DNA of 40,000 nt from an uncultured Alphaproteobacteria bacterium (GTDB lineage: Bacteria > Pseudomonadota > Alphaproteobacteria > ATCC43930 > CGMCC-115725), in assembly GCA_963842175.1 (NCBI GenBank), contig CAWJFM010000023.1, positions 1,396,751 to 1,436,750 of the forward strand, written 5' to 3'. Each line of letters starts with the position of its first letter. Within the stretch, counting starts at the first letter, position 1. Positions 12,152-32,622 of this stretch are shown piece by piece. The notes beneath the pieces are model-generated. The model was not told the DNA's origin. It saw only the letters and a list, made by a program, of their open reading frames with translations, and did no database searches. The position numbers were made by a program, and so were the translations under genes.

Positions 12152-12238
12152 TATTCTCGGCTCCAGAAATCCTCTGCCGAGGGCATGATTTTAGACATCG
12201 CGTAAGTGTTGCGCTAGCTTGGTCCCATCAAGCCCGCC

Positions 12239-14226: not shown

Positions 14227-14341
14227 CGCGCCGAGCCAAGCCGATAGTCCGCCGGAGGCATCCGGCGCCGCATTCTGCGTTGCGTTTGCCCCAGGTGACG
14301 TCACCGCGTGCAGGTCAAGGTCCATGCAAGGTCGGCGTGCG

Positions 14342-15193
14342 TCAGCATGCAGTGCTTGTGTAGAAATTGCCGCCGTTCCAGCAGACGGCATGACCGCCGA
14401 GACTGGTATCGATGTAGAGCACCGTCTCGCTGATATGACCGCTGCTGTCGGTCTGAAGGATGGTGTTGGCCCCGGAATTGCCGATCGGTGTCCCCGTCGC
14501 CAGCGCGGTGCCGCCGGTGCCGCTCCATCGCACGACATAACCGTCGGTTGAGCTACCCGGCCCGGTCACGAGATTGGCGATGACCGAACTCGACAGATGG
14601 CCGCTTGAGTCCGTCTCCATCACCGTATTGGCGCCGGAATTGCCAACCGGATAACCGGTCGCCAGCACACACCCGTTGGTGCTGCCCCACGATGCGACAT
14701 AACCGGCGGTCGTGCTGCCAGGACCGGTGATGCAGAAGCTCCCCGTGATGCCGATCGCCGAGGCAGTTGCCGGCGTCGCTCCGACAACCCGGAAATTGCC
14801 GGAATTGTCGAATTCGAGGGCCAGCATTTCGTAATTGCCGGCCGCGGTGGTGACCGATGTGACGGAATGCCCGCTCGGAAAGAGGATATTCCCGCCGCCC
14901 GTGGCGTTGGTCTGCACCGTTACCTGGTGGGCGTTATCGTTGACGACCTTGATCGTCCAGCCCGATGGCAAAACCCCGGATGTCGTTGCATTGGCCGGTA
15001 ATGTGATCGTCAGCGTGCCGCCGGCGTTGTAGGCCGAAAACACTGACCCCGAATCGTTCGGCACTGCGGTGTAGCTGGCGGCCGACGGATAGCGCCAATA
15101 ATCGTTGGCGCTGATCAGCTGCGCCCGCGCGGGAGGGCAGCCGAGGCCGGCAAGCAGCAGGGCGCAGACGAGGGCAGCCGAGCGCAGCATCAT
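14342..15193 (-). CDS. tail-fibre-like repeat protein with N-terminal signal peptide
   Basis: 283 aa. ATGA overlap with the upstream tail gene. MMLRSAALVCALLLAGLGCPPARAQ signal. Two tandem ~54-aa repeats (TGPGSTTAGYVASWGSTNGCVLATGYPVGNSGANTVMETDSSGHLSSSV / TGPGSSTDGYVVRWSGTGGTALATGTPIGNSGANTILQTDSSGHISETV) at 14408-14731. Confidence 0.55.
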   Translation of the reverse strand: MMLRSAALVCALLLAGLGCPPARAQLISANDYWRYPSAASYTAVPNDSGSVFSAYNAGGTLTITLPANATTSGVLPSGWTIKVVNDNAHQVTVQTNATGGGNILFPSGHSVTSVTTAAGNYEMLALEFDNSGNFRVVGATPATASAIGITGSFCITGPGSTTAGYVASWGSTNGCVLATGYPVGNSGANTVMETDSSGHLSSSVIANLVTGPGSSTDGYVVRWSGTGGTALATGTPIGNSGANTILQTDSSGHISETVLYIDTSLGGHAVCWNGGNFYTSTAC

Positions 15194-15813
15194 GGCGGTG
15201 CACTCCCGACGAGGCTCCAGAACACCGAGGCGAGCGTCGCGTCGGGCGACGCCGGCGCGACGATCGTCAGCACGTCGCCGATCGCGAAGGCGGTCGCCGC
15301 CGACATCGTAAAGCTCGCGGTCGTCGCGCTGGCCGCGAACGCCATCGTCCCGACGGCGCTGCCGTTCTTTTCGATCGAGTAGGTCGCCGTCCCCGTCGCC
15401 GCGGTCCCCGCAGCGCCCTGGCTGCCGCTGAGCCCGGCCGGAAAGGTCGTCGCCTGGCCGAAAACATAACGCTGCACGACCTGTGACGGCGTGGTCGGCC
15501 CGCTATAGGAGGCCGCGACCACCATCGCCGCGGCGCCGGCGCCGGTCAGCGTGTAGGTGACGGCGCCGACCTCGGCGAGGCTCTGCAGGGCCTGGCCGAA
15601 GGTGTTGAACGATAAGAGCTTCACAAAGATCGTCGAACCGATCAGGTTTGCCGGATAGCTGTAGCGGAACAACGACGGGTCATTCGGGCCGAAGCGCGCG
15701 AATTGGGCGCCGCTCGAATGGCTGCCGATCGGCGTCCCGTAAACGCCGCGGCGCAGCAGCGTCGTCAGGTTGTAGCGGTAGGCGGCGGTGAGGTTCGCGG
15801 TCTCATAGCTGAC
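15190..15813 (-). CDS. 3' portion of a tail (host-specificity-type) protein gene split by the 13.2-kb insertion
   Basis: In frame from 15813: VSYETANLTAAYRYNLTTLLRRGVYGTPIGSHSSGAQFARFGPNDPSLFRYSYPANL...SLVGSAPP. Joins seamlessly to 29025-29690 once the insertion and one repeat copy are removed. Confidence 0.8.
   Translation of the reverse strand, partial: VSYETANLTAAYRYNLTTLLRRGVYGTPIGSHSSGAQFARFGPNDPSLFRYSYPANLIGSTIFVKLLSFNTFGQALQSLAEVGAVTYTLTGAGAAAMVVAASYSGPTTPSQVVQRYVFGQATTFPAGLSGSQGAAGTAATGTATYSIEKNGSAVGTMAFAASATTASFTMSAATAFAIGDVLTIVAPASPDATLASVFWSLVGSAPP
15799..15813. repeat. target-site duplication, left copy
   Basis: GGTCTCATAGCTGAC is identical to 29025-29039 and directly abuts the left terminal inverted repeat. 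Confidence 0.85.
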
Positions 15814-15887
15814 CCCCTGGGAGCACGTCCGTCCGAACGGCAGGGTAGAGTGGTGCGGTGGTCAACAAAACTAATTGACGTGTCGCT
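15814..15887. repeat. left terminal inverted repeat
   Basis: CCCCTGGGAGCACGTCCGTCCGAACGGCAGGGTAGAG... matches the reverse complement of 28951-29024 at 67 of 74 positions. The first 37 nt are perfect. Confidence 0.9.
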
Positions 15888-15920
15888 CCCAAATCGGCTT
15901 TGTCTACCGTATTGTCACTG

Positions 15921-16213
15921 CCCGGCCTCCGGTGTCCCGGCCAGCCCCGCTGCGCTCGTCGGGCCGCGCTGGTGCTCGCTGAGGCAGTTCCAGCTCGCCC
16001 CGGCCTTGGTTAGCTCGGCCGGCGCCCGTGCACCCCAGCGGGCGCTCGCTGAGGCGGTTTCCGGCCCGGCCTGGACTCGGGTAGCTCGTCCCCGCCGTTC
16101 CGTGGCCTCGCGGGCTTCGCTGGCGGTCGCTGAGGCGTTTCCGGCCGCGCCCGGCCTCAGATAGGTCGGTCGCCCGCTCGCTGCGCTTGCTGGGCCGCGC
16201 TGGCGCTCGGGGG
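15921..16213. repeat. left subterminal array of about 4 degenerate 65-85-bp tandem units
   Basis: Each unit starts CCCGGCCT and ends with a CGCTGG-GCTCGCTGAGGCGGTTTCCGG-like core (15961-15990, 16040-16064, 16117-16145, partial at 16195-16213). The same core occurs inverted at the right end and once internally at 17322-17353. Confidence 0.75.
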
Positions 16214-16424
16214 AAATGGATGGGTGGGGGTGTGCTGTTTCGTGACGCACCCGGACACCTCGGTGGGGTGCGGCACGCAGCAACCGCCGGGTCGATCACA
16301 GCTTGGCGATGCCCCGATTTACCATTGCCTGAGCCATTCAAAGGCACGACTTTGGCCACGACGTTGCCGGCAATTCTGGCGAATATCGGATTAACTATAA
16401 AGAGCCGAAGCCAGGGAGGGATAA

Positions 16425-16628
16425 ATGGGCGAGTGGGTAGTCATGGCAATCTTAATGGTCAACGGCTCTAATTTACGAGTTGAAGTGGACAAGGCCGCGA
16501 GCCTTCAAGAATGCAAAATGAAGGCTATGCAGGCATATGCTCATTTGCCAAATGGACCGATCTTTTGTCAGCACGTTGATCAAGTCGAGTTAATCGACGT
16601 TTACGGAAACGCCCGACCAATACAATAA
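16425..16628 (+). CDS. hypothetical small protein
   Basis: 67-aa ORF with the GGGAGGG RBS 5-11 nt upstream of the ATG. Low-GC codon usage. Confidence 0.4.
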   Translation: MGEWVVMAILMVNGSNLRVEVDKAASLQECKMKAMQAYAHLPNGPIFCQHVDQVELIDVYGNARPIQ

Positions 16629-16649
16629 ATCCAGAGTTGTTTGGATCAG

Positions 16650-17234
16650 ATGAGCGCTATGCCTAAAACATCCATGCAAGCCATGATGATCGTGGCCGTG
16701 CTCGCGATCGTTCCGGCGGCTTTGGCAGCAAGTGTCGCCACGCGCGTTGTGCTCTACGCGCCTTATGGAATCGACGGACGCCTTCGATCGGGATTTACCG
16801 CTAGCCTACCGGTCCACGGCTCGTGTTGGACTTCATCGCTTGCCTCAACTCGGCCGGACGCATGGCGGTGCATGACTGGAAACTTCATCCACGACCCATG
16901 TTTTAGCAATCCCGCAAAGACCCAGGTGGCCTGCCCATCCGATCCGTTTAGAAAAGCGGTACTGGTGATCGACCTCGACAAGGCATTGCCCGCGCATTAC
17001 GGACAGTCAGGACAAAGCCCGTGGGCGCTCCGATTAGCCAATGGTGCGATCTGCGGCTTCGTAACCGGTGCCACGGGCGTCGTTGCCGGAATGCGATTGA
17101 ACTATGGATGCACAGGTAAAGGCTGGGTGATCGGAGAGGTAGACCGGTCGACTCGACCCTGGCGCGTCTTTTATACCCCTGATACTCAAAGCGGGGATTA
17201 CGTTCAAGTTGACGTGTCCGAAGCGGTCCTTTGA
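16650..17234 (+). CDS. secreted hypothetical protein
   Basis: ORF 16641-17234, ATG at 16650. Signal peptide MQAMMIVAVLAIVPAALAASVA. Cys-rich mature part. No family recognised. Confidence 0.55.
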   Translation: MSAMPKTSMQAMMIVAVLAIVPAALAASVATRVVLYAPYGIDGRLRSGFTASLPVHGSCWTSSLASTRPDAWRCMTGNFIHDPCFSNPAKTQVACPSDPFRKAVLVIDLDKALPAHYGQSGQSPWALRLANGAICGFVTGATGVVAGMRLNYGCTGKGWVIGEVDRSTRPWRVFYTPDTQSGDYVQVDVSEAVL

Positions 17235-17560
17235 TTTGAGTGGGCTTTGACGCTGCACAGGGAGCAAAAGACGGGACGCACGGCTATGGTAACAGTATAA
17301 ACAAACCTATCGGCTAGACTTGGCCGCGCTCGCGGTCGCTGAGGCGGTTCGGGCGAACCGTTTTCCGGTCATCGGCTTTCCGAGCACGAACTTAGCCAGC
17401 AACGCGGCATTGGACCCCGGCTTGGGTCGGCTCTGAGCAACTTCGATTCTTCAATGTTGACCGCGGCACTCTGTGGGAAAACTTTAGATGGGTTTGCCAA
17501 GCCGTGGTTATTGACAGGGGGGCTTTGTCCTCCGCATTCGAATGATTTTCATAAGGCGCC

Positions 17561-17740
17561 TCACCGGAACTTAATCCCGGTCATCAAGGAAAAGATCAAC
17601 GCGACGACTCCGATCACGATACAGAAGATCCCGAAGGCTACTGCGCCTTCGTTGGCTTTCCTCTGCTCGTCGAGTGTAAGCCGGTTGCGCCGGTAAATTT
17701 GCCGGTATGGGTGTTTTTGACGGTCGGTCGTTTTCGGCAT
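17561..17740 (-). CDS. small membrane protein
   Basis: C-terminal 59 aa of ORF 17561-18319, from the ATG at 17740: MPKTTDRQKHPYRQIYRRNRLTLDEQRKANEGAVAFGIFCIVIGVVALIFSLMTGIKFR. The rest of that ORF is antisense to the recombinase gene. Confidence 0.4.
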   Translation of the reverse strand: MPKTTDRQKHPYRQIYRRNRLTLDEQRKANEGAVAFGIFCIVIGVVALIFSLMTGIKFR

Positions 17741-17818
17741 GGTGCTACTTCGCTTTAGGGACCCCCTCGCGGAGGTTCCAAAACCGTTAGAAATCCTAAG
17801 CTTTGGTGGGCGATCCGC

Positions 17819-18371
17819 ATGTCTTTCACCAGATATGCACGGGTATCGACGGACGGCCAAAGCGTCGACGCGCAGATCACGGCGTTGACCGTCGCCGGCG
17901 CTGAAAAAGTTTCCCGCGAAGTGGCGAGCGGAACCAAGACCGACCGGGCGCAGCTCTTCCGATTGCTCGACCGGCTCGACGACGGCGACGTGCTGATGGT
18001 GACGCGGCTCGACCGGCTCGCGCGCTCGACCCGCGATCTTCTCAATGCCCTCGCGGCGATCACCGGCAAGGGAGCCGGTTTCCACTCGCTCGGCGACGCA
18101 TCGGCGAACACGACACCGCCGCACGGCTGGTTGATGCTCACCGTGCTTGGCGGCCTTGCCGAGTTCGAGCGCGAATTGATCCGCACGCGCACCGGCGAAG
18201 GACGGGCACGGCCGAAGGCTCGCGGTGTCAAACTCGGCCGGCGGCCGAAACTTACCCCGCACCAGAAGCGCGAGGGCTTTGGCGCGGCGCGAAAAGGGCA
18301 AGGAGACACTTGCCGACATCGGCCGCAGCTACAACGTGAGCGCATGGACGATTTCAAGGCTGACAGCTTGA
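17819..18371 (+). CDS. small serine recombinase (resolvase/invertase family); one frame break near 18275
   Basis: YARVSTDGQSVDAQ (catalytic Ser motif), VTRLDRLARSTRDLL and LAEFERELIRTRTGEGRARPKARG. Dropping one G of GAGGGC restores the C-terminal HTH ALARREKGKETLADIGRSYNVSAWTISRLTA, with a stop at 18369-18371. Confidence 0.85.
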
Positions 18372-18410
18372 CCTCGCGCACGTTTGGACGCTGAGGAGGA
18401 AACGCAAACG

Positions 18411-19250
18411 ATGGGCCGCCCCTTCGATTCGTGGCAGGATTACCAGTTATTCTCCCGCGCCGTCCGGAAACACAGAAGATATATCAGGACTCCGTCAGAA
18501 CAGGCCTTTTTAGAGGCAGTACGCGTCACAGTGAAAGACCGTATAATAACTCGTCCGGCGGGATACACGTTTTGGCGCGCGCAGCGCGGATACTGTGTGG
18601 GGTCAACCGCAATGGACAACGTCGACATTATCGACGCAGTTCCGTATCCGTCGGAACGAATGAAACCTCGTACCAATCAAGCCTCCGAAGGCGGAGCTAA
18701 TCCAAAAGACATTCCATGTCTCTATGGCGCGACTTCTCCTGATACCGCTGTGGCGGAAGTAAGGCCATGGAAGGGAGAACTTGTTTCAATTGGCAAATTT
18801 ACTCTATGTCGTAACGTGAAAATAGTAGAATGTTTAAAATATCATGATGAAGACCCCCATGATGTCTTTCTGAATACGCTCTACCCTCTTATGACATCAG
18901 CTACGGGAGAGATTGTTGCGGGCGAGCCGGAACCCCCTTCAGACGAAGCTGTAATAAAAAACGTGTGGACGCATATAGATAAGGCATTCTCTGAACCAGT
19001 AACACACAGCGATGACCACGTAGACTACGTACCGACACAGAATTTAGCAGAATTATTCAAGACAGAGGATTACGATGGCGTGTGTTATCACAGTCAGCTT
19101 TCAGATATGGGTGTTAATTTGGCGTTTTTTGACCTAGAGATAGCAACAGTAGCAGGCCGCCATTTGCGCCAAGTGACTGACGTAAAAATAGAATCCAAAA
19201 TGCGCGAAGGCCGCGGGATTGATCCCCATTCCGGCAAGCCAAATAATTAG
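18411..19250 (+). CDS. RES-domain protein
   Basis: FWRAQ, GGANPKDIPCLYGATSPDTAVAEVRPWKG and YVPTQNLAELFKTEDYDGVCYHSQLSDMGVNLAFFD fit the RES family pattern. The usually conserved Arg of the GRxN motif reads Gly here. Markedly AT-richer than its neighbours. Confidence 0.65.
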   Translation: MGRPFDSWQDYQLFSRAVRKHRRYIRTPSEQAFLEAVRVTVKDRIITRPAGYTFWRAQRGYCVGSTAMDNVDIIDAVPYPSERMKPRTNQASEGGANPKDIPCLYGATSPDTAVAEVRPWKGELVSIGKFTLCRNVKIVECLKYHDEDPHDVFLNTLYPLMTSATGEIVAGEPEPPSDEAVIKNVWTHIDKAFSEPVTHSDDHVDYVPTQNLAELFKTEDYDGVCYHSQLSDMGVNLAFFDLEIATVAGRHLRQVTDVKIESKMREGRGIDPHSGKPNN

Positions 19251-19299
19251 AGATTTGGCGACGACTGGCGCGACGCGTAGGGTGTCCGTTGTCCTAGTC

Positions 19300-19625
19300 A
19301 TGGCGATCTTAACCACCGCTTTGCTGATCACGTCATCGGAAGCAGCGCAGCCGGGTAACTATAATCTGATCGGCGCCGGAACCATTTCATGCGGGAGGCT
19401 GGACAGCGTTGCGGCGTCGAGGGCAGGCAGACTTTGCCGAACAGTGGATTTTGGGCTTCCTCTCCGGAGTTGGCTATGAGGCAGGAGGGGATAACCCTCT
19501 GAACCCCCTGAATGGCGTTGATGCGGCTGCCCGTCTGGGCTTGGATGGATAACTACTGCCGAGCCAATCCTCTAAATACCGTCGCAGCCGCTGGTGCGGC
19601 ATTCGCTGCAACACATCCTCGCTGA
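19300..19625 (+). CDS. small secreted protein, spread over three frames
   Basis: MAILTTALLITSSEAAQ signal, then ...ISCG..., FAEQWILGFLSGVGYEAGGDNPLNPLNGVDAAA, and WAWMDNYCRANPLNTVAAAGAAFAATHPR in successive frames. Stop at 19623-19625. Confidence 0.4.
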
Positions 19626-19703
19626 CTTTCCAGAATCCCGCGTTATCCGCCGCGCCAGTCTGCCGACTTTCCAGAAGTGACCTTATCGGCCATCCGGAGC
19701 GGG

Positions 19704-20135
19704 TCAAAACGGAACGTCGTCGTCGTCGAGATCGGCCGCGGCGGCGCCGCCACCGCTGAGCTAAGCCGCGCTGGCATCGTCTCGCCGACCGTCGAGCATG
19801 ACAAGCTTGCCGCGGTGCTGCGACAGCACGATCTCGGTTGCGCTGCGCTGCGGGCCTTCCTGATCCTTCCATTGGCGGGTCCGTAGCTGCCCCTCGATGT
19901 ATACTTTGGAGCCTTTGCGCAGATATCTGAAGGCGACTTCGGCGAGCTGTTCGCTAAAGATAGTGATGTGATGCCATTCGGCACGCTCGCGCCGCTCGCC
20001 GCTAGTCCGATCGTGCCAACTCTCCGATGTCACGAGGTTAAATGAAATGACAACGCCGCCCGCCTGTGTCGCCCGCATCTCGGGATCGTGTCCGAGGTTA
20101 CCGATCAGGATTACTTTGTTGATGTTACCGGCCAT
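19704..20135 (-). CDS. ssb: single-stranded DNA-binding protein with an in-frame TAG at 19761-19763
   Basis: MAGNINKVILIGNLGHDPEMR...WHHITIFSEQLAEVAFRYLRKGSKVYIEGQLRTRQW is an OB-fold SSB. After the TAG the same frame continues LSGGGAAAADLDDDDVPF then stop, the canonical acidic SSB tip. Confidence 0.85.
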
Positions 20136-20138
20136 GAG

Positions 20139-22397
20139 TCATTCTTCATGCGGTAAAAAATCGATATGATCGGGCATACCTTCAAGCCAAACGTCTTCGC
20201 CCATCAGCTCCAATTCGCCGCTGTCATTAATCACCGTGATAAGCTTGTCGAAATCAGCCGGTTTATATCCTTCACTTTCGGCAAAGAGAGACCCGACGCG
20301 GGGAGACGTGGTCAGACTTCCATCGTCATTGACGACAACACGCATCCGGTGCCGCTTGCTATCCCATTCAAAGGTTTCGTGGCGTGTTTCGTCCTTCCAT
20401 TGACCTGCAAGCCAGGACTTGCCGCGGGCAAGTGCCAGCCGGTTCCCGTAAAATACAGGGATGGTTACAGGAACCGAGGGGAGCTTCCGTTCTTTCAGAA
20501 GGAGTTCTTTGGCGCCAGGTCGGCATAAAAGCTCGAACCATTCCTCGAACGTTCGAATAAATTGCGGGGCTGCCTTACCAATCACAGAACGTTTGACACC
20601 GCGCGATTTGATACGATCGGTCAATTCAGAAGCCGAGTCATCCGAATGACGCAGCAAGGTCGGTGAAAAATACACTCCGGGCTGAGCGATAAAGAGATCG
20701 GGCCATTGCTTCAATTCCCATTGCCCCAGCCCCTTACCGATATCGAGCGCGAGGGGTCGGGTGCTGAACACAGCATCGGTTGCGATCATCACCACCGCCT
20801 CGGGGTCTTGCCCGACTGCTTCCATGATCCGCGCTCGCGTTATTGCGGTGATCAAGCCGGCCTCTACCACGTCGTGATAAGGCCCGTGTCCGCTGCGCTG
20901 GGCGCGTTTGCCGTAAAGTGAGTTCAGCGCGAGCTTGAGGGGATAGCCTTTGGTCGAGGCGCCCAATCGTTGCCGTTCCACGTAAACCTCGGTGATCCAG
21001 TCATACGGCCGGCAATCGCAGCAGCGCTTGGCGATCCAAACATCGTGAACGGTGATGATGTCAGCTTGCAGGTGCTGGCAAGCCGCTTCGATTTCCGGTG
21101 ACCAATACCACCCGGTTCCGCGCAACGGCCAGAACAAGCCGCCCTTCTGCCGAAAAGGAAAGCCGCACCACAAGCTATCGGGCGGATGCGAGAACGTCAC
21201 CTTGGCAAGATAAAGTTCGCCGTTGGTCGGCAACCGCCGACGTCGGCTGTGAACCCATCGCGTATGTTGCGGGCATGGCATTTGCAGCATTCCCGCGGGA
21301 TAGGCGCTTTTGAGATCGTTTTCGAACAAGGGACCGGTGAGGAAACCGATCCGCGAAACCTCGAAGCGCCCGCCATAGTACGCAAGGTTCGCGGCGATTT
21401 CTAATTCACGATCTCGCTCGGGCCGGCGCGGCGACGGATTGTTGGAAGGCTTACTTTCCGCCGCCTCCCGCTGTTCTCTGGCAGTCAATGGCCGCTTCAA
21501 CGCACCGTGTTGTTTGAGCATTGCTGCAGCAAGCCAACCAGCTCCGGCCCATCGTTCCGGGCGAATTCCGGCGGCATAGCATACCTCGCGGAATTCGGTC
21601 ATGAGCACAGCGAGATAACGGCATTCCAAAGTGCAATATTCAATCATCTGGTCGGTTAATTCGGTAAATTCGTTCCTGATATCCTTATTCGCCTTAATGA
21701 TAGCGCGCTCGGCCTCATTACCGATGTTCCAATCCGTAATAGCTTTCACGAAAGTGCATTGAAAAAACCCAAGCGTTTCATAAACCGTTCGGCTTGATCC
21801 TTTCAAGACCCTCGGCTTCGGCCCGCTCCGATCGATCCGAGCGACGCGCAGGTATTGTCCTTGCTGATAGGTGATCGCGTATTCTCTCCAGAATACCGGG
21901 ATCGGCCCGTTCTTGCCCTGTCGTGGATTGATGATTTCCCGCAGCTTTTGGCCAGGAATACCCCGCAGGATTTGGGTTGCGTCGTAACCAATACCATATC
22001 CTACGAGAATAGGTTCTTTGGGAAGGCTCAGCAGAAATTCAAAACAATCTACAATGGACAACGCTTTGCCCTTATTGTGACGAATGTGCTTTGTCTCTCC
22101 CGATGCGTCCGCGGCGACCATCAATAAATAATGCTGCCGCCCGAGATAGTCCGTTCCGCCGCCTTCTCCGTCTATTGCCAGGAACGGGCGGAGTTCCCCG
22201 TTGGCGCGTGCTTCCCGCTTTCGCTCGCGTTCGCGTCCGAACTGTTCGGGAGTTTGTCGCTGGCGAGCGTCGCGCTTGCGGCGGCGTTCTTGCTCGCGCC
22301 GCGCTTCGACCTCCAGCGCATATTCCGGCCCCAGCGCCTTGATCCTCTCGCGGACGTACTCGACCGCAGCCGCAGCGTCGGATGGTAAGGTTGTCAT
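20139..22397 (-). CDS. family-B DNA polymerase (752 aa)
   Basis: Start at MTTLPSD (ATGA overlap with the upstream ORF). ExoI FLAIDGEGG, ExoII GYGIGYD, ExoIII YCTLECRYL. Motif A FENDLKSAYP, motif B KLALNSLYGK, motif C VMIATDAVF. KSRG lies where KxY normally sits. No frame break in 2.26 kb. Confidence 0.8.
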   Translation of the reverse strand: MTTLPSDAAAAVEYVRERIKALGPEYALEVEARREQERRRKRDARQRQTPEQFGRERERKREARANGELRPFLAIDGEGGGTDYLGRQHYLLMVAADASGETKHIRHNKGKALSIVDCFEFLLSLPKEPILVGYGIGYDATQILRGIPGQKLREIINPRQGKNGPIPVFWREYAITYQQGQYLRVARIDRSGPKPRVLKGSSRTVYETLGFFQCTFVKAITDWNIGNEAERAIIKANKDIRNEFTELTDQMIEYCTLECRYLAVLMTEFREVCYAAGIRPERWAGAGWLAAAMLKQHGALKRPLTAREQREAAESKPSNNPSPRRPERDRELEIAANLAYYGGRFEVSRIGFLTGPLFENDLKSAYPAGMLQMPCPQHTRWVHSRRRRLPTNGELYLAKVTFSHPPDSLWCGFPFRQKGGLFWPLRGTGWYWSPEIEAACQHLQADIITVHDVWIAKRCCDCRPYDWITEVYVERQRLGASTKGYPLKLALNSLYGKRAQRSGHGPYHDVVEAGLITAITRARIMEAVGQDPEAVVMIATDAVFSTRPLALDIGKGLGQWELKQWPDLFIAQPGVYFSPTLLRHSDDSASELTDRIKSRGVKRSVIGKAAPQFIRTFEEWFELLCRPGAKELLLKERKLPSVPVTIPVFYGNRLALARGKSWLAGQWKDETRHETFEWDSKRHRMRVVVNDDGSLTTSPRVGSLFAESEGYKPADFDKLITVINDSGELELMGEDVWLEGMPDHIDFLPHEE

Positions 22398-22810
22398 GCT
22401 GCCGCCCTGCGACGGATGCCGGCGCGTGTCGAGTAGTAGAGGCGCCACAGCGAGCCGCGATAAAACGGCCACTCGGCGAAGGGATCGGGAGCGCTCGGCG
22501 GCACGTAGTCGGGATAGCGTTGAACCGCTGCCCGGAACCGATCTTGTTCGTTGATCGACAGCGCGTTGAACAGGCTGCGGTCGCGGTCGCTGAGCGCGAC
22601 CCGGAACTCTTCCCGTGTTTCAATTGCCCGGATGCCGCGCCGCGCTGCCGCTGCCCGCCGCTGCGCCCGGCGGCGCGCCTCGGGATTTTTCGCACGGGCC
22701 GCTCGCGCTTCGGCGAGCGCTCGGCGCCTGCTCAGCTCGGCCCGGTGCTGCCGCTCGTAGGAAGGAGTGCCGGGCCGGTACGGATTGCGTCGCGGGCGCC
22801 GCTCAGCCAT
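22394..22810 (-). CDS. basic hypothetical protein translationally coupled to PolB
   Basis: MAERRPRRNPYRPGTPSYERQHRAELSRRRALAEARAARAKNPEARRR...FAEWPFYRGSLWRLYYSTRAG. Its stop overlaps the polB ATG. Confidence 0.5.
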   Translation of the reverse strand: MAERRPRRNPYRPGTPSYERQHRAELSRRRALAEARAARAKNPEARRRAQRRAAAARRGIRAIETREEFRVALSDRDRSLFNALSINEQDRFRAAVQRYPDYVPPSAPDPFAEWPFYRGSLWRLYYSTRAGIRRRAAA

Positions 22811-23166
22811 GGCGTGCCGCCACATGAAAATGGCGAGCCTCCCGCCAGCGCGGGCGCGAGCCTAAAACGAAAAAGTCCGGGTCCGGCGAGAACAAAATCG
22901 GATCGAACCGCGGTCGGAATTCGTCGGCATCGAGCGCCACAGCGAGCCGCGCATACGCGGCAGTCATTGGCCGCGCTCCCACCGCGGGACCTCGGCATTG
23001 CCTCGCTCCGCCCGCCATGGTAAAGCGTTCACCATGAAGTTCCCCCCTCCGCGGCAGCCGCCGTGGTTGTATGGACTGGGCGACCGATATCATGTGCGGA
23101 AAAATGCCGCAAGAAATATCGGGAGCATGCCTTCTTTTCAAACAGAATCAGTGCTATAAGAGGCGC

Positions 23167-23793
23167 ATGAACACCAAGCGCCAGGCCTTGGACGCCACCT
23201 CAGCCCTCAAATCCGGCGACCTCTCGAAGGCCGTTAGGCTTGCGGCCAAAGCCGCCAAAACCGCCAAAACCGCCGAAGATGGTCTACTACCTCTGCTCAA
23301 CGAGGCCATGCAGGCAGGGATAGCCCTCGGGCAGGCGAGCGGCAAAAGCGAGGCTCCGCCGCCGGAAGCATTGGGATTTTTGCGCTTTTTAGCGGCAGCG
23401 CCGGTTGCCGCGGAGGGCTTTCGGACACTGCGGGAAAGCCTCGGAATCTCGCAGGCTGAGATTGCCGAAATGTGCGGCGTCTCCCGCGCGGCTGTGTCCG
23501 ACTGGGAGCGTGGCAAAGCGTCTCTGCCGCCAGCCGCCGTTCATGCCCTTCTCGGGTTAACGATGGCCCGCCTTGGTCGGGCCGAGCCGGCGCCGCTGCT
23601 CGGCAGCGATATAGCCAGGATTCGCAAAGCACTCCGGATGCGGCAAACCGATTTAGCCGCTGCACTCGGAGTCAGCGAGATCGCGGTCAGGAAATGGGAG
23701 CAGCGTGGCGATCAGCCGCTTGCTTCATCGACGGTTCGCCGCATCCAGCCCCGGCTCGACGAACTACAGGCGCAAGCGTCAGCAGCGTCTTGA
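23167..23793 (+). CDS. DNA-binding protein with two XRE/Cro-type HTH domains
   Basis: ORF 23071-23793 trimmed to the ATG at 23167. LRESLGISQAEIAEMCGVSRAAVSDWERGK and IRKALRMRQTDLAAALGVSEIAVRKWEQRG. Divergent from the polB operon and immediately upstream of the Cas1-like gene. Confidence 0.7.
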   Translation: MNTKRQALDATSALKSGDLSKAVRLAAKAAKTAKTAEDGLLPLLNEAMQAGIALGQASGKSEAPPPEALGFLRFLAAAPVAAEGFRTLRESLGISQAEIAEMCGVSRAAVSDWERGKASLPPAAVHALLGLTMARLGRAEPAPLLGSDIARIRKALRMRQTDLAAALGVSEIAVRKWEQRGDQPLASSTVRRIQPRLDELQAQASAAS

Positions 23794-23833
23794 TCTGATC
23801 ACTCGGTTCAAATTCGAGCCGCTCGGATCGGGA

Positions 23834-23864
23834 TTGATTTTAATCGCCGTCGAATTGGTATAGT
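23834..23864 (+). promoter_or_regulatory. candidate promoter for the Cas1-like gene
   Basis: TTGATT (23834-23839) and an extended -10 TGgTATAGT (23856-23864). The spacer is 19 nt, longer than optimal. Lies in an AT-richer gap. Confidence 0.25.
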
Positions 23865-24100
23865 ATTGAATTTGCTCCGCAAAGGGGCGCACCGGAGCAG
23901 GCGCTGGAACGCCTGCCCCGGCACTTGATCAACGATGCGATAGGAGCGCACCGTGACCCTGCTGATACGTGTTCCCAAACCTCAGAGGCGTCAACCGGGT
24001 CGTTGCCCGCTCTTAGACGGACAGACCGTCCCGACTGCGGGCATTCTGTTCAATCGCTGCATCGTCCACCCGAGCCAAACGGAAAACCGGAGGCTCCCTC

Positions 24101-25744
24101 ATGCACGCCGATGACACGAACTACACCGTCATTAAGAATGGCGTGGTTGTCGTGAGCGGCACCGGCCCGGCGATCCGCGTCGACGGCAACAAGCTGGTCA
24201 TCCGCGACGGCCCGAAGGAAACCCCGCCGCTCGCGCTGACGCGGGCGGAAGCCTCGCGAAGGCTGCGACATATCATCGTCACCGGGCAGGCCGGCGGCTT
24301 CATCACCTTCGACGCGCACCGATGGCTGCGCGACACGGGTGTTGCGTTCTCTCAAGTCGATTGGGATGGGAGCGTCATCATTGCTTCCGGATCGCGACGA
24401 CCCGACCGGCCGGCGCTGCGCCGGGTGCAAACGCTCATATGCAGCGGAGTCATTCCACAAACAGCGGTCGCCATCACGCGCGAAATCCTGCGCGTCAAGC
24501 TGGCCGGCCAAGCTGAGGTTGCCCGGCTGCTAGGGCGGGCGGAGGCGAGCGCGGCCATCGCCGGCCTCACTGCGGACATCGCTCGCGAGGCGGCCGGCCC
24601 AAAGGTGCTGGCGATCGAAGCGAAGGCGGCCTCGATTTACTGGCGCGAGTGGGCAACGGTGCCGGTGCGGTTCGCCCGCGACAACCCGCAGCGGCTCGAT
24701 CATAAGGGACGATGGCGGCCCGGCCGAGCCGCGGCATGGCATACATTCGGAAGCCGGGTGTCGGCGTTGACCGGTAAGCCGCGGCGGGCGACTACGGCCG
24801 GCAACGCGATTCTCAATTTCCTGCTAGGGATCGCAAAAATCGAGATGACCGTTGCCTTGTACGCGGTCGGACTCGACGCAGGGATTGGACTATTTCATGC
24901 CGATGAGGACGGCCGCCCCTCGCTGGCGCTGGATGCGCAAGAGGCAGTCCGTCCGTATATCGACGCATGGTGTCTCTCGTTCCTGGCAGCGACGGCTTTC
25001 GCCAATCGTGATTTCCACGAAACCGCAGAAGGTGAGGTTCGGCTTACCCATCCGCTCACGGCGCACCTTGCACATATGGCCGCGCTGTGGCGGCCGGCGT
25101 GCGAGCGGGTAGCGGCATGGCTGGCGCAGGCGTTCGCCGGTACGGTTGACCTTCCCGCCGACAAACCCGGCGCTGACGATCTGCCGCGGATCGCTGCCGC
25201 TGTCGCCGGGCCGCGGAAGCGAGGCGCGCGGCAACTGGCGCCCTTACCTCGACTGTTGCCGGTGCCCACCGGGCGGGACTTGAGTAGCCTGCCGGCACTG
25301 CGCGGCGGCTTGCGCGACAACCCCGTACCGCAGGCGTGTTTCGAATGCGGCCGAGCGCTGACGCGGAAGCAACGCCGTTTCTGTTCGACCGCTTGTACAG
25401 CCGCCTTTTCTACGGCCTCGGGGCGGATCGCAGCGATGCGTGAATTGTCTGCGGGATCAACCGACCGTTCCGAAACCCTTCGCGCCGCCAATGCCGCACG
25501 ACGCGAATGGGCAGCCCATCACGCCGCGGATCGGGTCGCCTTCGATCGCTGGTATTCGGCTGCGATAGAGCCGCGCCTTACCTCGCTCCGCACCGCCGAT
25601 ATTCGGCGCTCCCTTGCGGTGTCCTGGAGTTATGCTACCCTCATCAAGCAGGGGCGGCGAACGCCACACCCGCGACATTTTCCGGCCTTAGCGAAGCTCG
25701 CCGGGGTTGAGGCGCCGAGCATCGGCGCGGCGGGTAGCGGATGA
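24101..25744 (+). CDS. cas1: Cas1-like integrase (putative casposase) with a C-terminal Cys4 and HTH-like extension
   Basis: GGAGG RBS. HIIVTGQAGGFITFDAHRWLRDTGVAFSQVDWDG (N-terminal domain). AIEAKAASIYW (E173), TAGNAILNFLLG (N235), GLDAGIGLFHADEDGRPSLALDAQEAVRPYID (H266, D278/E281) match the Cas1 catalytic-domain pattern by eye. CFECG...RFCSTAC at residues 413-432. No frame break in 1.64 kb. Confidence 0.8.
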   Translation: MHADDTNYTVIKNGVVVVSGTGPAIRVDGNKLVIRDGPKETPPLALTRAEASRRLRHIIVTGQAGGFITFDAHRWLRDTGVAFSQVDWDGSVIIASGSRRPDRPALRRVQTLICSGVIPQTAVAITREILRVKLAGQAEVARLLGRAEASAAIAGLTADIAREAAGPKVLAIEAKAASIYWREWATVPVRFARDNPQRLDHKGRWRPGRAAAWHTFGSRVSALTGKPRRATTAGNAILNFLLGIAKIEMTVALYAVGLDAGIGLFHADEDGRPSLALDAQEAVRPYIDAWCLSFLAATAFANRDFHETAEGEVRLTHPLTAHLAHMAALWRPACERVAAWLAQAFAGTVDLPADKPGADDLPRIAAAVAGPRKRGARQLAPLPRLLPVPTGRDLSSLPALRGGLRDNPVPQACFECGRALTRKQRRFCSTACTAAFSTASGRIAAMRELSAGSTDRSETLRAANAARREWAAHHAADRVAFDRWYSAAIEPRLTSLRTADIRRSLAVSWSYATLIKQGRRTPHPRHFPALAKLAGVEAPSIGAAGSG

Positions 25745-25957
25745 CCCCCGTGCGCAGCGACATTGGGGGCGGCATTCATTGCGGCCTTCTCCGCGCTGGC
25801 CTGCGCTGTTGGGCAGCGCCAATCCATACTGTTCCCCGGTGCAGATCGTCCGCGTATCGGCTTCAAATGTTGCTGGCCTCCTGCAAATTCCCGAAGGCGC
25901 CCGGTCGAAGCGGCCCCGCGCTGGCGCGCCTTCAAATTTAGAGCGAGGCGGGCTTAA

Positions 25958-26648
25958 CTACAGGCTGGCACTTGCAGCCATCTGTGCCGCTCTGACGATC
26001 CGGTCTTGCTCCGCTTTCTCCTGATGCCAAACTTCTCGCTCCTGAGCGTAGGCTTCGAAATCTTGTCGGATTTTCTTCTCAGCCTGTGCGGCACCCTCCA
26101 AAACGGACTTACAACCCGAGGCAAGGTCAGTTTCGACCTGAAATGACACTCCGAGGGAGCTGCCACCGCTGCAAATGGCCGAGGTCGCATGGAGGAGCGG
26201 CAAGAAATTGTTGGCCCAATACTGATGGTTGTTCCGGAGAGTTGTCACCTGCATGTGGAGGTTGCTCGCTTGCAGCCCCATCTGGATTAGCTGAACCGAA
26301 AATTGCACCCGCGTGGCGCCAGTTTGTCCGGGAGCAGGTGAATAGAAAGTGCGTTCCCTTTCCAGACCGTTTCTCATCGCCGCGGTGATATCTCGATACC
26401 TTTGTTCGATCCTCTCCAACTGGCGAACGCGCTCGGCAACCGCAGAACTCAATACCTGCGTTGTCCGATAGAACCTGATTGATGTGTTCCCTCAGGCTCT
26501 GTTGCGCGGCTTGCTGCGCCTGCCGCGCTCGCTGTGCTGCCGCCTGTGCAGCTTTTTGCTGCTGTTCAGCTTGCCGAGCTGCGGCAATGCGAACCGCTTT
26601 CCGTTCCGTTACCGGACGGTGGGATTTCCGAGCAACATCGAAATACAT
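25958..26648 (-). CDS. coiled-coil hypothetical protein (one gene with a frame break near 26460, or two genes)
   Basis: MYFDVARKSHRPVTERKAVRIAAARQAEQQQKAAQAAAQRARQAQQAAQQSLREHINQ (from the ATG at 26648) runs into VLSSAVAERVRQLERIEQRYRDITAAMRNG... of ORF 25958-26452 after a 1-nt shift. Confidence 0.4.
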
Positions 26649-26869
26649 CTACCCGGTGTGAGCTGGACATGTTGGGCTGCGGCAATCGCGTCTATCGCCG
26701 AGTCCGGAAGCACGGCCACAATCGCAGCTCCAATTCCACCTTGGCGCATCGCCTCCTGTCGAATTTCGTCGCGCACGATCCCGCATGGGCTGAGTGTGCC
26801 GAATTTCAGTAGCACGACGCCAGCCGCGATTGCTACCAGAGCAATGCATATGAAGCCGGCTTCGCGCAT
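26609..26869 (-). CDS. membrane hypothetical protein
   Basis: ORF 26609-26881 from the ATG at 26869: MREAGFICIALVAIAAGVVLLKFGTLSPCGIVRDEIRQEAMRQGG... The tail overlaps the next gene by 40 nt. Confidence 0.4.
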   Translation of the reverse strand: MREAGFICIALVAIAAGVVLLKFGTLSPCGIVRDEIRQEAMRQGGIGAAIVAVLPDSAIDAIAAAQHVQLTPGRCISMLLGNPTVR

Positions 26870-26986
26870 CGCAGCCCCCAAAGGTCGGTGTGCGCCAAGT
26901 AGGCGTTAATGGTGAATATAAACCTAATACGGTTTATCATAGCGCTGTTGCTGGCGGTTTTCGAATGGCTGGCGATGGTGATCGGC

Positions 26987-27064
26987 ATGATCACCTCTCG
27001 GCAGATCAGAGCCGCTCACGCGCTTCTCGGCTGGTCTCAACAGCAGCTTGCCGACAAGGCATCT
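26987..27064 (+). pseudogene. 5' fragment of an XRE-type HTH gene
   Basis: MITSRQIRAAHALLGWSQQQLADKAS is a typical XRE N-terminus. Downstream, the + frame becomes the antisense of the minus-strand fragment. Confidence 0.45.
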
Positions 27065-27074
27065 CGTCAAAAAA

Positions 27075-27227
27075 TTAGGGGCGGGCGAGCCGCACCCCTT
27101 CTCCCTTCACGTCGGCCGCGAGAAATTCGATGCCGGCTTCCGTCAGTGCTTTGTGGACCGCCATCAACGTGCTCATCCTCGGGTCCACCTCCCCTCGCTC
27201 TAATCGCGCGAGCGCGTTGAGAGAAAT
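27075..27227 (-). pseudogene. 3' fragment of an XRE-type HTH gene, on the opposite strand to its 5' fragment
   Basis: ISLNALARLERGEVDPRMSTLMAVHKALTEAGIEFLAADVKGEGVRLARP then stop. No start codon or first helix upstream. Joining it to 26987-27064 gives a complete in-frame HTH protein. Confidence 0.5.
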
Positions 27228-27274
27228 GATTGGGCAGCCGGCGCTACCCTCGCGCGAAATACGAGAGGGAGGCA

Positions 27275-27537
27275 ATGCCGCATCGACGACGCATTTTGGC
27301 GACACTCGCCGCCCTTGGGTTGCTTCTGGCAACAATAGGCGGCGCGGCAGCTCAGTAACCGGGGGTTGGATTGCGGCTACTACGTCAACCGAAGCGGAGA
27401 AACGCCTCCGCGCCCATGGAAGCGTCAGGGAGGAACAACCGCCACGCGGCGCCACGGCAACATGCCGCGATGGGGAGTACAGCTACAGCCGGCATGATAG
27501 CGGCACGTGCTCCGGACAGGGCGGCGTGCAAAGCTGA
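27275..27537 (+). CDS. DUF3761-like secreted protein, spread over three frames
   Basis: GAGGGAGG RBS. MPHRRRILATLAALGLLLATIGGAAAQ signal, then GYYVNRSGE..., then PPRGATATCRDGEYSYSRHDSGTCSGQGGVQS (the C-DG-YS-S...GTCS-GGV signature). Confidence 0.6.
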
Positions 27538-27753
27538 CTCTGCTGAATGTCAAGCCGAGTGGGTGCGCCATGCAATTCTTCGCCGCCGCTTCGATCATAA
27601 TCGCCGGCATCGTCGGCACGATACTCGCGGTGTTTGATCGTTCTCGCGATGCGCCAAGGCTGGCGCGAGGGCGACGTGGTTGAAGTTCACTCGGCCCTGA
27701 CGGGATGCAGGTCATCGATCTCCAAGAGCGGCAGCACCGCGCAGAGTTCGCCG

Positions 27754-27948
27754 ATGATCACTGATCTCGACATTTACCGTGCTGCGAATTTGCTGATCGA
27801 GCGGCACGGCCCGAATGCGCTCATTGAGGCGGCCCGGCTAATCGATCGGATGCTAGAGCGCGGCGACCGCGATGGGCAACTTGTGTGGCTACGGATCAAG
27901 CGGGCGATCGAGGCGTTGCAAGCACCGCCGAGCGGGACGAGGCATTAA
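27754..27948 (+). CDS. hypothetical small protein
   Basis: ORF 27634-27948 trimmed to the ATG at 27754: MITDLDIYRAANLLIERHGPNALIEAARLIDRMLERGDRDGQLVWLRIKRAIEALQ. Confidence 0.5.
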   Translation: MITDLDIYRAANLLIERHGPNALIEAARLIDRMLERGDRDGQLVWLRIKRAIEALQAPPSGTRH

Positions 27949-28241
27949 TGACGAACGACCTGGAGATCATACATATTCTTTGGCGCGGACCATTAACATT
28001 GGCAGATGCAAGCACTGCCAATACAGGTGGCGACTACGGCGTGTATCAAATCTATGGCACACATGAAACAGGAGGACCTGATACGCTGCTCTATGTAGGT
28101 CAGGCTGATCGGGGAACGTTCGATGGCCGCATCCTGTATCATTATTCAGAATGGGGCCGGTGGAACCCCGATGATCTCAAAATTTACCTCGGACAAATGG
28201 CGGGGGTCAGGCCGATAACCAACGACGCTTGGGGCAATTAA
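27948..28241 (+). CDS. hypothetical protein
   Basis: ORF 27885-28241 trimmed to the ATG at 27948 (TAATG overlap with the upstream stop): MTNDLEIIHILWRGPLTLADAS... Lower GC. Confidence 0.45.
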   Translation: MTNDLEIIHILWRGPLTLADASTANTGGDYGVYQIYGTHETGGPDTLLYVGQADRGTFDGRILYHYSEWGRWNPDDLKIYLGQMAGVRPITNDAWGN

Positions 28242-28444
28242 CAGTTCGCGCATTCGATCGCTTCGATATCAAGAGAAACCCATCTTAATCGTAAATCACG
28301 GACGCAGACATCGCCTACCAGAATGCATCTCGACCCTTACCGAATTCATCAACACCGATGGTCGGCTAAAGCCATTTAGCCCGGATAATTCACGAAGTCG
28401 CATAAGGAGGGCGGCGGGAGCAGCATAAGCCGTTGGATTTGTGT

Positions 28445-28700
28445 ATGATTATGGTTGTTCAGGCCAGATCAACCGAAGCAACGGAGTTCGCGCCCGCCAT
28501 GGCGGAAGGTACGGGGATTCTGCCGGGTTTGCCAGCCGTCGCCGGCAAGCCGGTGTATGTCGGTTTCGATGGAGGACGGCTCACCTCAGATGCCGGTATC
28601 CTGTTGCTGTCAGCCGTCGAGCAGCGGCTTCGGATCGCCGAGCGCCTGGCCGCCTGCCTCGAAGACCCGCGCGACCCGGACAGGGTGCGACACGAGCTTG
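28445..28700 (+). pseudogene. N-terminal remnant of an IS1380/IS4-type DDE transposase
   Basis: KPVYVGFDGGRLTSDAGILLLSAVEQRLRIAERLAACLEDPRDPDRVRHEL resembles the N-terminus of DDE_Tnp_1_4-type transposases. The similarity stops after about 85 aa, where the ORF runs into the subterminal repeats. Confidence 0.5.
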
Positions 28701-28708
28701 CCGACGGC

Positions 28709-28940
28709 GAGGCCCGGCGAGCGCATGAGTGGCCGGCTGAGGCCGCCGAGGGGGGGCAAGCCAGAACCGCCTCAGCGGGCGCCAGCGAGGCCCGGCCAGC
28801 GCAGCGGGCGGCTGGCCGAGCTGTCCGGAGGCCGGGTAAGCCGGAACCGCCTCAGCGACCGCGAGCGAGGCCGGGCGAGCGCATCGAGCTACGCGAGGCC
28901 GGGCGACGCGAGGCCGGGCGACGCGAGGCCGGGCGACGCC
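28709..28940. repeat. right subterminal repeats, inverted relative to the left array, plus 3 perfect 15-bp tandem copies
   Basis: GAACCGCCTCAGCG cores at 28765-28778 and 28845-28858 are the reverse complement of the left-end CGCTGAGGCGGTT core. ACGCGAGGCCGGGCG occurs three times in tandem at 28891-28935. Confidence 0.75.
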
Positions 28941-28950
28941 AGGAAGTGGT

Positions 28951-29024
28951 AGTGACGCATCAATAGGTTTTGTTGACCACGGCACCGCTCTACCCTGCCG
29001 TTCGGACGGACGTGCTCCCAGGGG
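28951..29024. repeat. right terminal inverted repeat
   Basis: Its reverse complement matches 15814-15887 at 67 of 74 positions. The terminal 37 nt are perfect. Confidence 0.9.
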
Positions 29025-29039
29025 GGTCTCATAGCTGAC
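29025..29039. repeat. target-site duplication, right copy
   Basis: GGTCTCATAGCTGAC is identical to 15799-15813. Confidence 0.85.
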
Positions 29040-29690
29040 CAGCTCGCCGTCGCAATAGCACAGCGTCACGAAATCGTTGGCATTGGCGCTGGTGCCGGAG
29101 AGCAGCTGGCCCTGGCTCATCGCCAGGTCGACGCTGAGCGTGTCGCTGGTGTCGGGGTCGGCGTGGCTCGGCAGGCTTGCGGTCAGCACGCCCTGGCGGC
29201 CGCCGCGGTAGATCTGGCCGGCCAACGCATAGGTGTTGCCGTCGGTCGAGACCCAGATCTGGGCGCCCCCCCAATTCGGATTGTAGAACGCGATCGTGTC
29301 GCCGCTGCCCACTCCGCCGCCGGTCACAGCGGCGCTCAACACCGGCGCGGTTGGCGAGGGGGTCTGCACCGTGGTCCCAGCCGGGATCGCCCCCGGGCTG
29401 GTCAGATCCTCGACGACGACGCCGGCGACGACCGAGGGCGGCAGCGGCCCAGTGAAATGCAACGTCGCGCCCGAAGCGGTCGCCGCACTGGTCGCGACCT
29501 GGACATCGCCGCCACTCGCGATCAGCCAGACTTCGAGGTCGCCGCCCGACAATGCCGGCGGCGGCTCGAAGATGATCGGCGCGTTGGCGTTGCCGGGGTC
29601 GACCAGCATGTTCGGGCCGCTGCCGGCCGTCGCCAGCCGCGTGTAGCGCTGCGGCGTGTTGACGCCGATCGGGGTGATGGTGCCGGGCAT
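29025..29690 (-). CDS. 5' portion of the tail protein gene split by the insertion
   Basis: ATG at 29690: MPGTITPIGVNTPQRYTRLATAG...NANDFVTLCYCDGELVSYET. The track ORF 28581-29690 then reads through into the TIR. Confidence 0.8.
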
Positions 29691-29778
29691 CAGGTGTCAG
29701 GAACCAGGAGCCAGGAAGGAATGCGGCGCCCCCACCTTCTTCTTCCTGATCCCTGATCCCTGTCTCCTGGTCCCTGTC

Positions 29779-32619: not shown

Positions 32620-32622
32620 CCG

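Follow-up and report, generated by a model that had tools for sequence, protein, structure and literature searches.

Interest in casposons comes chiefly from the view that the CRISPR adaptation machinery probably descends from them, an argument that leans on a site-specific, gene-sparing integration beside a leader-like motif. Their defining features are a Cas1 homologue (the casposase), a family B DNA polymerase (PolB), terminal inverted repeats (TIRs), and a target-site duplication (TSD) of 15 bp (PMC4046053). The casposases of AciBoo-C1 and MetMaz-C1, both of family 2, need a leader-like motif (PMC5137440, PMC6614799, PMC6977970), and that of A. boonei integrates randomly when its own site is absent (reviewed in PMC9939771). 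Published bacterial casposons are few and all have been described as intergenic; those of family 3 include HenMar-C1, HypCY54-C1, CitBat-C1, NitAL212-C1, and AceAut-C1 (PMC4046053, PMC4779613). Here, we describe a complete, self-replicating bacterial casposon of 13,211 bp that occupies positions 15814-29024 of a 40,000-nucleotide stretch of DNA (the window) from an uncultured alphaproteobacterium (contig CAWJFM010000023.1) and that lies inside a phage tail gene. The element carries Cas1 and PolB genes between TIRs, is flanked by a 15-bp TSD, and shows no link to Cas2 or CRISPR; it is a casposon, as had been proposed in an earlier reading of the letters alone (the sequence-only reading).

A casposon inside a phage tail gene

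The sequence-only reading held that the element splits a prophage tail gene and that its deletion restores the open reading frame (ORF), and this is what was found. Joining 29690-29040 to 15813-15190 on the minus strand yields an ORF of 1275 nt, free of stops and frameshifts, with the peptide ...DFVTLCYCDGELVSYET/ANLTAAYRYNLTTLLRRGVYG... across the restored junction (slash); the coordinates and both peptide strings given earlier are all correct, and the protein announced as ~425 aa has 424. The element is flanked by two copies of a perfect 15-bp direct repeat, GGTCTCATAGCTGAC, which on the coding strand corresponds to nt 652-666, that is, codons 218-222 (VSYET) in phase 0, and which occurs exactly twice in the window, against 0 occurrences expected from 100 shuffles. 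The sequence at the left junction is ...GCG GGTCTCATAGCTGAC / CCCCTGGGAGCACGTCCGTCCG..., that at the right junction is ...CGGACGGACGTGCTCCCAGGGG / GGTCTCATAGCTGAC CAGCTC..., and the longest word common to both flanks is 15 nt, or 16 nt if the next, ambiguous C, which overlaps the TIR tip, is counted. A script comparing both termini found the terminal arms identical at 55 of 57 positions, and the inverted repeat lengthens to 79 nt at 90% identity. As assembled, the 5' part of the tail gene continues into the casposon as a chimeric ORF of 369 aa (28581-29690), and the public database entry P0027 is this truncated tail product. Judged from the sequence, the full-length tail protein can no longer be made, its gene being split into a 5' part of 222 codons and a 3' part of 202.

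Homologues of the tail protein number 435 in the database, and uninterrupted ones, which the sequence-only reading had wished to see aligned across the junction, are among them. The closest full-length ones, P0001-P0004 (423-425 aa, 70-76% identity, 99% coverage), are unbroken at the junction, as are the common homologue forms of 347 aa and all twelve aligned proteins, those four included; neither these twelve nor the protein of the related contig described next start or end there. Conservation in the alignment is highest at the insertion point, where T222 and A223 are invariant and the block CDGELVSY.TA.LTAAY is among the best conserved. Moreover, contig L001 (274 kb) of a related genome has an intact tail gene of 424 aa in the same tail/lysis gene order, and its empty site, GTCAGCTACCAGACC, matches the TSD at 13 of 15 positions. 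Compared with the L001 gene, the halves of the interrupted gene show identities of 79.1% and 79.8%; the 3' part shares 75% identity with L001 residues 218-420, and the stretch just upstream of the insertion point is identical at 33 of 36 nt.

The restored protein contains an Rcc01698_C domain (PF23666, residues 166-255, 4.5e-13) and matches phrog_1101 (1.6e-24) among PHROG tail families. A homologous domain (residues ~136-307) is present in isolated phages of Pseudomonas, Brevundimonas, and Acinetobacter, and the matching phage genes, where annotated, are named 'tip attachment', 'host specificity', or 'tail' protein. On these matches, the target is the C-terminal part of a tail protein for host specificity (tip attachment) that is J-like and resembles g15 of RcGTA. 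A structural model of the restored protein from the 12-sequence alignment has a mean pLDDT of 47.6, with values below 50 across residues 150-304, a quality insufficient for comparing folds.

The junctions do not seem to be artefacts of assembly. The exact casposase protein is also encoded on a 33-kb contig of an ENA analysis, contig_206307, which is 99.925% identical to window 14101-30017 over 15.9 kb (10 substitutions and 2 single-base indels) and has junctions, TSDs, and TIRs identical to those of the window; a Logan contig covers 6.6 kb of the casposon interior.

Insertion sites of related casposons

A search for relatives of the casposase returned 242 proteins, the best 120 of which were listed, and their Cas1 sequences, 53-82% identical to that of the window, were traced to contigs. 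Scans with the casposase alignment added 5 loci from a genome collection and 47 from metagenomes, the latter mostly too short for element ends, and a TIR-pattern scan of IMG/VR gave 20 contigs, with real casposon ends only in L080 and L088; a recurrent IMG/VR match of the TIR pattern inside a terminase gene was dismissed as a chance match. The ends of the relatives share the tip C4-10(A/T)GGGAG(C/A)A...CGTCCGTCCG. Among L005, L007, L012, L053, L071, L072, L074, and L080 the C-run of this tip varies between 4 and 10 residues, and it differs even between L080 and L088, contigs with the same end, which could reflect homopolymer error or real variation; such variation shifts the called TSD boundaries. 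A terminal inverted match of 123 bp in L101 was rejected as a TIR, given that it lies in coding sequence at the contig ends.

Several relatives lie in or beside other genes. In L074/L075, one end of the element adjoins a reading frame whose match to the BexC/CtrB/KpsE family begins only at profile position 244 of 362 (residues 244-360), which places the end inside a kpsE-like gene. In L003, the closest relative, one end directly adjoins what is the catalytic half of a tyrosine recombinase, beside an IS91 transposase, and the left end is absent from that contig; IS91 and IS1380-type transposases and a reverse transcriptase flank this element (L003:15480-16724, 20775-21635). In L080/L088, a terminase large-subunit gene is immediately followed by a small ORF, and the casposon end falls close to the 3' end of this small ORF, whose homologues run ~13-60 residues further. 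Other elements are intergenic, ~70 bp upstream of an ArsR-like gene (L006), ~130 bp after hypF (L071), and ~145 bp upstream of a DUF2125 gene (L072); the right end in L006 is obscured by an IS630-type transposase gene that abuts a terminal repeat of ~1 kb (L006:17383-17500). The elements of L005 (15 kb, TSD GAGGTTCTTCGGGGC) and L007 (15.8 kb, TSD ATTTCCGGCGAACG) have TSDs of 14-15 bp, and their site sequences are unrelated. A tRNA-Leu gene lies ~440 bp from the L007 element and does not abut it. The ORF that spans the L005 site has no match in Pfam or NCBIfam, and this site was not counted as intragenic. In L053/L054, two different casposon ends abut with a spacer of 11-17 nt, a tandem pair sharing one target. 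The termini (L053:1830-2010, L054:2160-2340) stand tail to head with only GGGCCGCGCTCGCCCCC between them, which is TSD-sized if ambiguous G/C runs are allowed for, and the arrangement resembles the arrays reported from Methanosarcina.

Among these relatives, no end abuts the 3' end of a tRNA gene or an EF-2 gene, and no common motif was seen in the TSDs and flanks of ~10 insertion sites. The GAGGTTC near the window and L005 sites and the short palindromes at TSD edges were considered as a shared target motif and set aside, since they are not in register; we regard these similarities as chance in GC-rich DNA. The sequence-only reading had asked what the casposase recognises and had proposed to compare the sequence upstream of the TSD among copies with matching TIRs; in the comparison, no common upstream sequence appeared, and what is recognised is probably little sequence. 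Casposons of this clade that land in genes or in other mobile elements are no exception, and the data give no support to a specific affinity for the tail-gene sequence. Since the members sit at unrelated sequences, target choice is probably only weakly sequence-dependent, with insertions surviving in dispensable DNA. The evidence suggests, without proving it, that the clade is free of the site specificity of the studied casposons.

The phage-like cluster and the quality of the assembly

The tail gene has a baseplate hub gene, a Phage-tail_3 gene, and a GH25 endolysin gene as neighbours on the same strand, and IMG/VR relatives of the cluster have portal and prohead protease genes upstream, so the region is a caudovirus-type structural module. 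The DUF2460, Gp84_N/BR0599, Phage-tail_3, and Rcc01698_C families of the cluster also occur in RcGTA-like gene transfer agents (GTAs). For the 212-aa head-completion protein of the cluster, no identical protein was on record. The flanking host genes (leuA-like, NUDIX, and the SDR gene adh_short) are bacterial and adjoin the cluster in L001 as well, and the nearest relatives of both the tail gene and the casposase come from Stellaceae and Alphaproteobacteria metagenome-assembled genomes (MAGs). Window 12950-40000 corresponds to L001:1-16000, with the same structural and lysis cluster at the orthologous chromosomal position of a genome ~15% divergent; identity to L001 is 79-94% at the nucleotide level for the cluster and 84-87% for adjacent host genes. 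This similar divergence suggests vertical inheritance, domestication (GTA-like), or reuse of the same attachment site; because of it, a long-resident or domesticated cluster is a possible reading. Between the last conserved cluster gene and the host SDR gene, a variable stretch (10700-12950) has no counterpart in L001 and includes a low-GC island (0.53 at 11001-12000).

Relative to L001, the phage genes show at least 11 frame changes in ~10 kb (sites between 13400 and 38350), with one or two in many of the genes, and a neighbouring phage gene has an apparent in-frame stop at 30290. The host NUDIX and SDR genes have one frame change each (9569-9571 and 10329-10337), which are single inserted bases in otherwise identical (CG)-rich sequence, and the density is ~1 per kb in host and prophage genes alike. 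The neighbouring frameshifts are likely consensus errors of a long-read assembly, and the record names (contig_N in ENA analyses, 'MFD...bin' for the MAGs of relatives) would fit long-read metagenome assemblies. Because frameshifts also hit host genes, the integrity of the prophage apart from the insertion is not judgeable. Hence, the earlier claim that the insertion inactivates the prophage tail stands as regards the split gene, and its further assumption of an otherwise functional prophage cannot be judged. Across the core genes of the casposon, 4.6 kb in all, no frameshift occurs, for which the Poisson chance is ~0.01 at one event per kb; their lower GC or a higher read depth could explain this. 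The Phage-tail_3 gene encodes 456 aa in L001; at window 29690-31153 it is divided between two ORFs (287 and 172 aa) whose frames differ. Over the first ~365 residues of the protein, identity to L001 is only 50%, against 86% for the last 93, which suggests a recombination boundary near 30058, close to the point where contig_206307 ends and diverges.

Origin of the insertion

The explanation that we prefer is that codons 218-222 of the tail gene, in a prophage or prophage-derived cluster of a high-GC soil alphaproteobacterium, received a complete bacterial casposon, which inserted by means of its own Cas1-family casposase. By analogy with characterised casposases, the enzyme would have joined both TIR ends at cuts staggered by 15 bp, and repair of the gaps would then have produced the 15-bp duplication; the footprint itself is seen here. 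Members of the clade would not use the 3' ends of tRNA or EF-2 genes as sites, being found at unrelated sequences, and their insertions would persist where they are tolerated, in prophages, other mobile elements, accessory genes, and intergenic DNA. Taken as a whole, that is, a tail gene split by the casposon's own casposase and a target choice in the clade that is probably weakly selective, we give this explanation a probability of roughly 0.85. Several points weigh against it. The closest empty-site allele found stands at 76% protein identity and the timing is not established; defects may have been present in the prophage beforehand (at least 11 apparent frameshifts and the stop-like position 30290), although frameshifts of this kind in host genes (adh_short and NUDIX) speak for assembly errors; the weak selectivity is based on only ~10 sites, several of them seen from one side; the tandem ends in L053/L054 show reuse of a site and argue for some target recognition; and contig_206307 comes from the same sequencing project and is not fully independent.

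The event had been called recent and precise. Its precision is confirmed; its recency is plausible and undated, given the perfect TSD, the gene halves that are intact and equally similar to L001, and the low GC content of the element. It could instead be old, in a prophage that was already a dead remnant, and so be devoid of functional consequence. This is rather unlikely, though it would account for the neighbouring phage genes that are broken with respect to L001, including the divided Phage-tail_3 gene, and for a cluster that shares its chromosomal position with that of L001 and diverges from it about as much as the host genes do, which suggests that it has resided there for long. However, host housekeeping genes are frameshifted just as often, pointing to assembly error over decay, whereas the split tail gene has kept its 1275 nt clean, a perfect TSD, and equally conserved halves, and the GC content of the element is still mostly below that of the host. 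An improbable view is that of a targeted insertion, with a casposase that recognises a conserved sequence of the tail gene, or phage DNA in general: the site does lie in the gene's most conserved stretch, a second relative (L080/L088) sits in a phage packaging module, and the tandem casposon ends show site reuse, but no other relative is in this tail gene and the ~10 sites have no common motif. Moreover, the terminase-linked case was found in a search of a viral-only database, which cannot show enrichment, and its phage is unrelated to that of the window.

The element also contains a resolvase gene and a transposase remnant, and either a serine recombinase or an IS1380-type transposase might have moved it in place of Cas1. 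This is very improbable, because the transposase is only a remnant of 57 residues, the core common to the compared relatives consists of the genes for the single-strand DNA-binding protein (SSB), PolB, a 138-143-aa protein, and Cas1, and no resolvase is among the called genes of L003, L071, L072, and L074, which have the same TIR tip and TSDs of 14-15 bp. To our knowledge, serine recombinases and IS1380 elements leave no duplication of 14-15 bp as a footprint. For casposases, in turn, a duplication of this size is the known footprint (PMC4046053, PMC9939771). It is hardly credible that the junctions are assembly chimeras or that the two halves are naturally separate genes, which the sequence-only reading had named as ways to refute it. 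The assembly is error-prone, with frameshifts in host genes, but matching TIRs, a perfect TSD, and in-frame restoration cannot come from misjoining, and all homologues are unbroken across the site; given this TIR/TSD geometry and a separately built contig with identical junctions, a chimera is unlikely.

Genes and repeats of the element

The features of the element and of the interrupted gene are collected in the table. Among solved structures, the Cas1 homologue is closest to the casposase of Methanosarcina mazei (6OPM, 2.5e-13), with CRISPR Cas1 proteins ranking behind; in an alignment of 13 relatives, the catalytic-region positions E248, H266, D278, and E281 are invariant and a C-terminal Cys4 cluster (CxxC...CxxxC) is kept. 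The Exo I-III motifs and motifs A, B, and C of PolB are conserved in five clade members, although its motif C, IATDAV, is unusual; its sole Pfam match is the organellar/viral protein-primed family, and no match was found among PDB sequences. The 143-aa protein encoded just upstream, which had no family match in Pfam and NCBIfam scans, is basic, overlaps the start of PolB, and is conserved clade-wide; speculatively, its role may be that of an accessory to replication, for instance a terminal protein. The element also encodes a DUF3761 protein. The resolvase gene overlaps that of the RES-domain protein, and the C-terminus of the resolvase appears to be out of frame after ...KLTPHQKRE. No Cas2 match was found among the ~17 element ORFs scanned and no HNH endonuclease in Pfam or NCBIfam scans of the element ORFs. 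In the window, no Rfam family (CRISPR repeat families included) matched, no tRNA was found, and the only tandem arrays are the subterminal repeats.

These subterminal repeats are candidate binding sites for the casposase or for the helix-turn-helix (HTH) protein; the long TIRs of the relative L007 hold internal repeats that resemble them. The GC content of the element is 0.55-0.61 in most 1-kb windows, with exceptions of 0.65-0.67 across 22001-23000 and in the Cas1 gene region (24001-26000), and that of the flanks is 0.67-0.70; a content mostly lower than that of the flanks points to a foreign origin of the element.

Table. Features of the casposon, the interrupted tail gene, and the phage-like cluster (positions in the window)
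Feature	Position	Strand	Remarks
GH25 endolysin gene	13226-13909	-	End of the prophage-like cluster
Tail gene, 3' part	15190-15798	-	Codons 223-424 and stop
TSD, left copy	15799-15813		Perfect 15-bp direct repeat GGTCTCATAGCTGAC
TIR, left	15814-15891	+	Core 15814-15870; tip CCCCTGGGAGCACGTCCGTCCG, kept in relatives
Subterminal array, left	15946-16220		Repeats of ~70-80 bp, core GCTCGCTGAGGCGGTT; extra copy at 17312-17359
Serine recombinase (resolvase)	17819-18394	+	Cargo; family scan
RES-domain protein	18384-19250	+	Cargo; family scan
SSB	19761-20135	-	PF00436, 5e-33; kept in relatives
PolB	20139-22472	-	752-777 aa by start codon chosen; PF03175, 7.5e-11
143-aa protein	22394-22825	-	Clade core, just upstream of PolB; conserved in relatives
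Protein with two Xre-type HTH domains	23071-23793	+	Upstream of the casposase gene; family scan
Casposase (Cas1 homologue)	24101-25744	+	547 aa; PF01867, 3e-27; also a TIGR00287 match
IS1380-type (DDE_Tnp_1_4) transposase	28535-28705	+	N-terminal remnant, 57 residues, inside the casposon
Subterminal repeats, right	28700-28945		Units of 80 bp (x 2.3) and of 15 bp (x 5.7); orientation opposite to that of the left array
TIR, right	28947-29024	-	Core 28968-29024
TSD, right copy	29025-29039		GGTCTCATAGCTGAC, 15 bp
Tail gene, 5' part	29025-29690	-	Codons 1-222, the last five being the right TSD copy
Phage-tail_3/phrog_1101 protein	30290-31153 and 29690-30208	-	Upstream tail gene, apparently broken
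Baseplate hub	31904-34123	-	Upstream tail gene

Significance and comparison with described casposons

What is new here is a well-documented, gene-disrupting insertion by a bacterial casposon of a clade that is not matched to any described family; mechanistically, it is an extension of known behaviour and not a new principle. The earlier remark that a target inside a phage structural gene is unusual agrees with the literature, in which the described sites are tRNA or EF-2 genes or intergenic DNA, and our literature search found no paper on casposons inside prophage genes and no experimental study of a bacterial casposon. The interrupted gene, the empty orthologous site, and the perfect 15-bp footprint form a natural before-and-after pair, and the locus is a concrete case in which one mobile element disables part of another, namely the host-recognition module of a prophage, which gives it value for the field of casposons and CRISPR origins. 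As a tentative and somewhat doubtful proposal, these bacterial casposons could form a clade that has not been described before and is abundant in soil Alphaproteobacteria, whose casposase has little or no sequence-specific target recognition and which acts as an insertional mutagen accumulating in prophages and other mobile elements; its proposed core comprises an SSB, a PF03175-type PolB, a 138-143-aa protein, and a zinc-cluster Cas1, with HNH not found in the element of the window. If true, it would be the first natural counter-example to the leader-plus-repeat-like specificity that is thought to link casposases to CRISPR spacer integration and, if weak selectivity holds, a natural system for the study of how Cas1-family integrases gain or lose target recognition.

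Comparison was made by described features, and a placement of the clade in family 3 is not established; proteins from the named family 3 hosts were absent from the best 120 of the 242 casposase matches. As in family 3, the element has a bacterial, probably alphaproteobacterial, host, Cas1 and PolB between TIRs, a TSD of ~15 bp, and insertion sequences that parasitise the casposon; its Cas1 has a C-terminal zinc-binding Cys cluster like that of AceAut-C1, and its variable cargo includes a serine resolvase like that of HypCY54-C1. However, the described members of family 3 are all intergenic, whereas this element and some of its relatives are intragenic; the HNH gene present in three of the four original members was not found in it; SSB belongs to the conserved core of its clade; and the only Pfam match of its PolB is to PF03175, a family of protein-primed type, in contrast to the RNA-primed type stated for families 2 and 3 (PMC4779613).

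With AciBoo-C1 and MetMaz-C1 of family 2, the element shares the fold and catalytic region of the casposase (6OPM being the best structure match), a TSD of 14-15 bp, essential TIR termini, and, in its relatives, tandem arrays. Nevertheless, family 2 elements have archaeal hosts and target tRNA-Pro or tRNA-Leu genes at their 3' end, sparing the gene, whereas no tRNA is present here and the target gene was destroyed. The thaumarchaeal casposons of family 1 (PMC8464041, PMC6563490) are similar in their protein-primed-type PolB, according to Pfam, and in their TIR/TSD architecture, but they live in archaea, have a Cas1 that lacks additional domains, and insert at the 3' end of aEF-2. Thus, in contrast to the site-specific casposons of families 1, 2, and 4, the target is not at the 3' end of a tRNA or aEF-2 gene and the gene is split. 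In this respect the element behaves like ordinary low-specificity bacterial transposons in prophages, which hit a dispensable prophage gene and whose excision in silico restores the ORF, although it differs from them in its Cas1-homologue integrase, its 15-bp TSD, and its own DNA polymerase.

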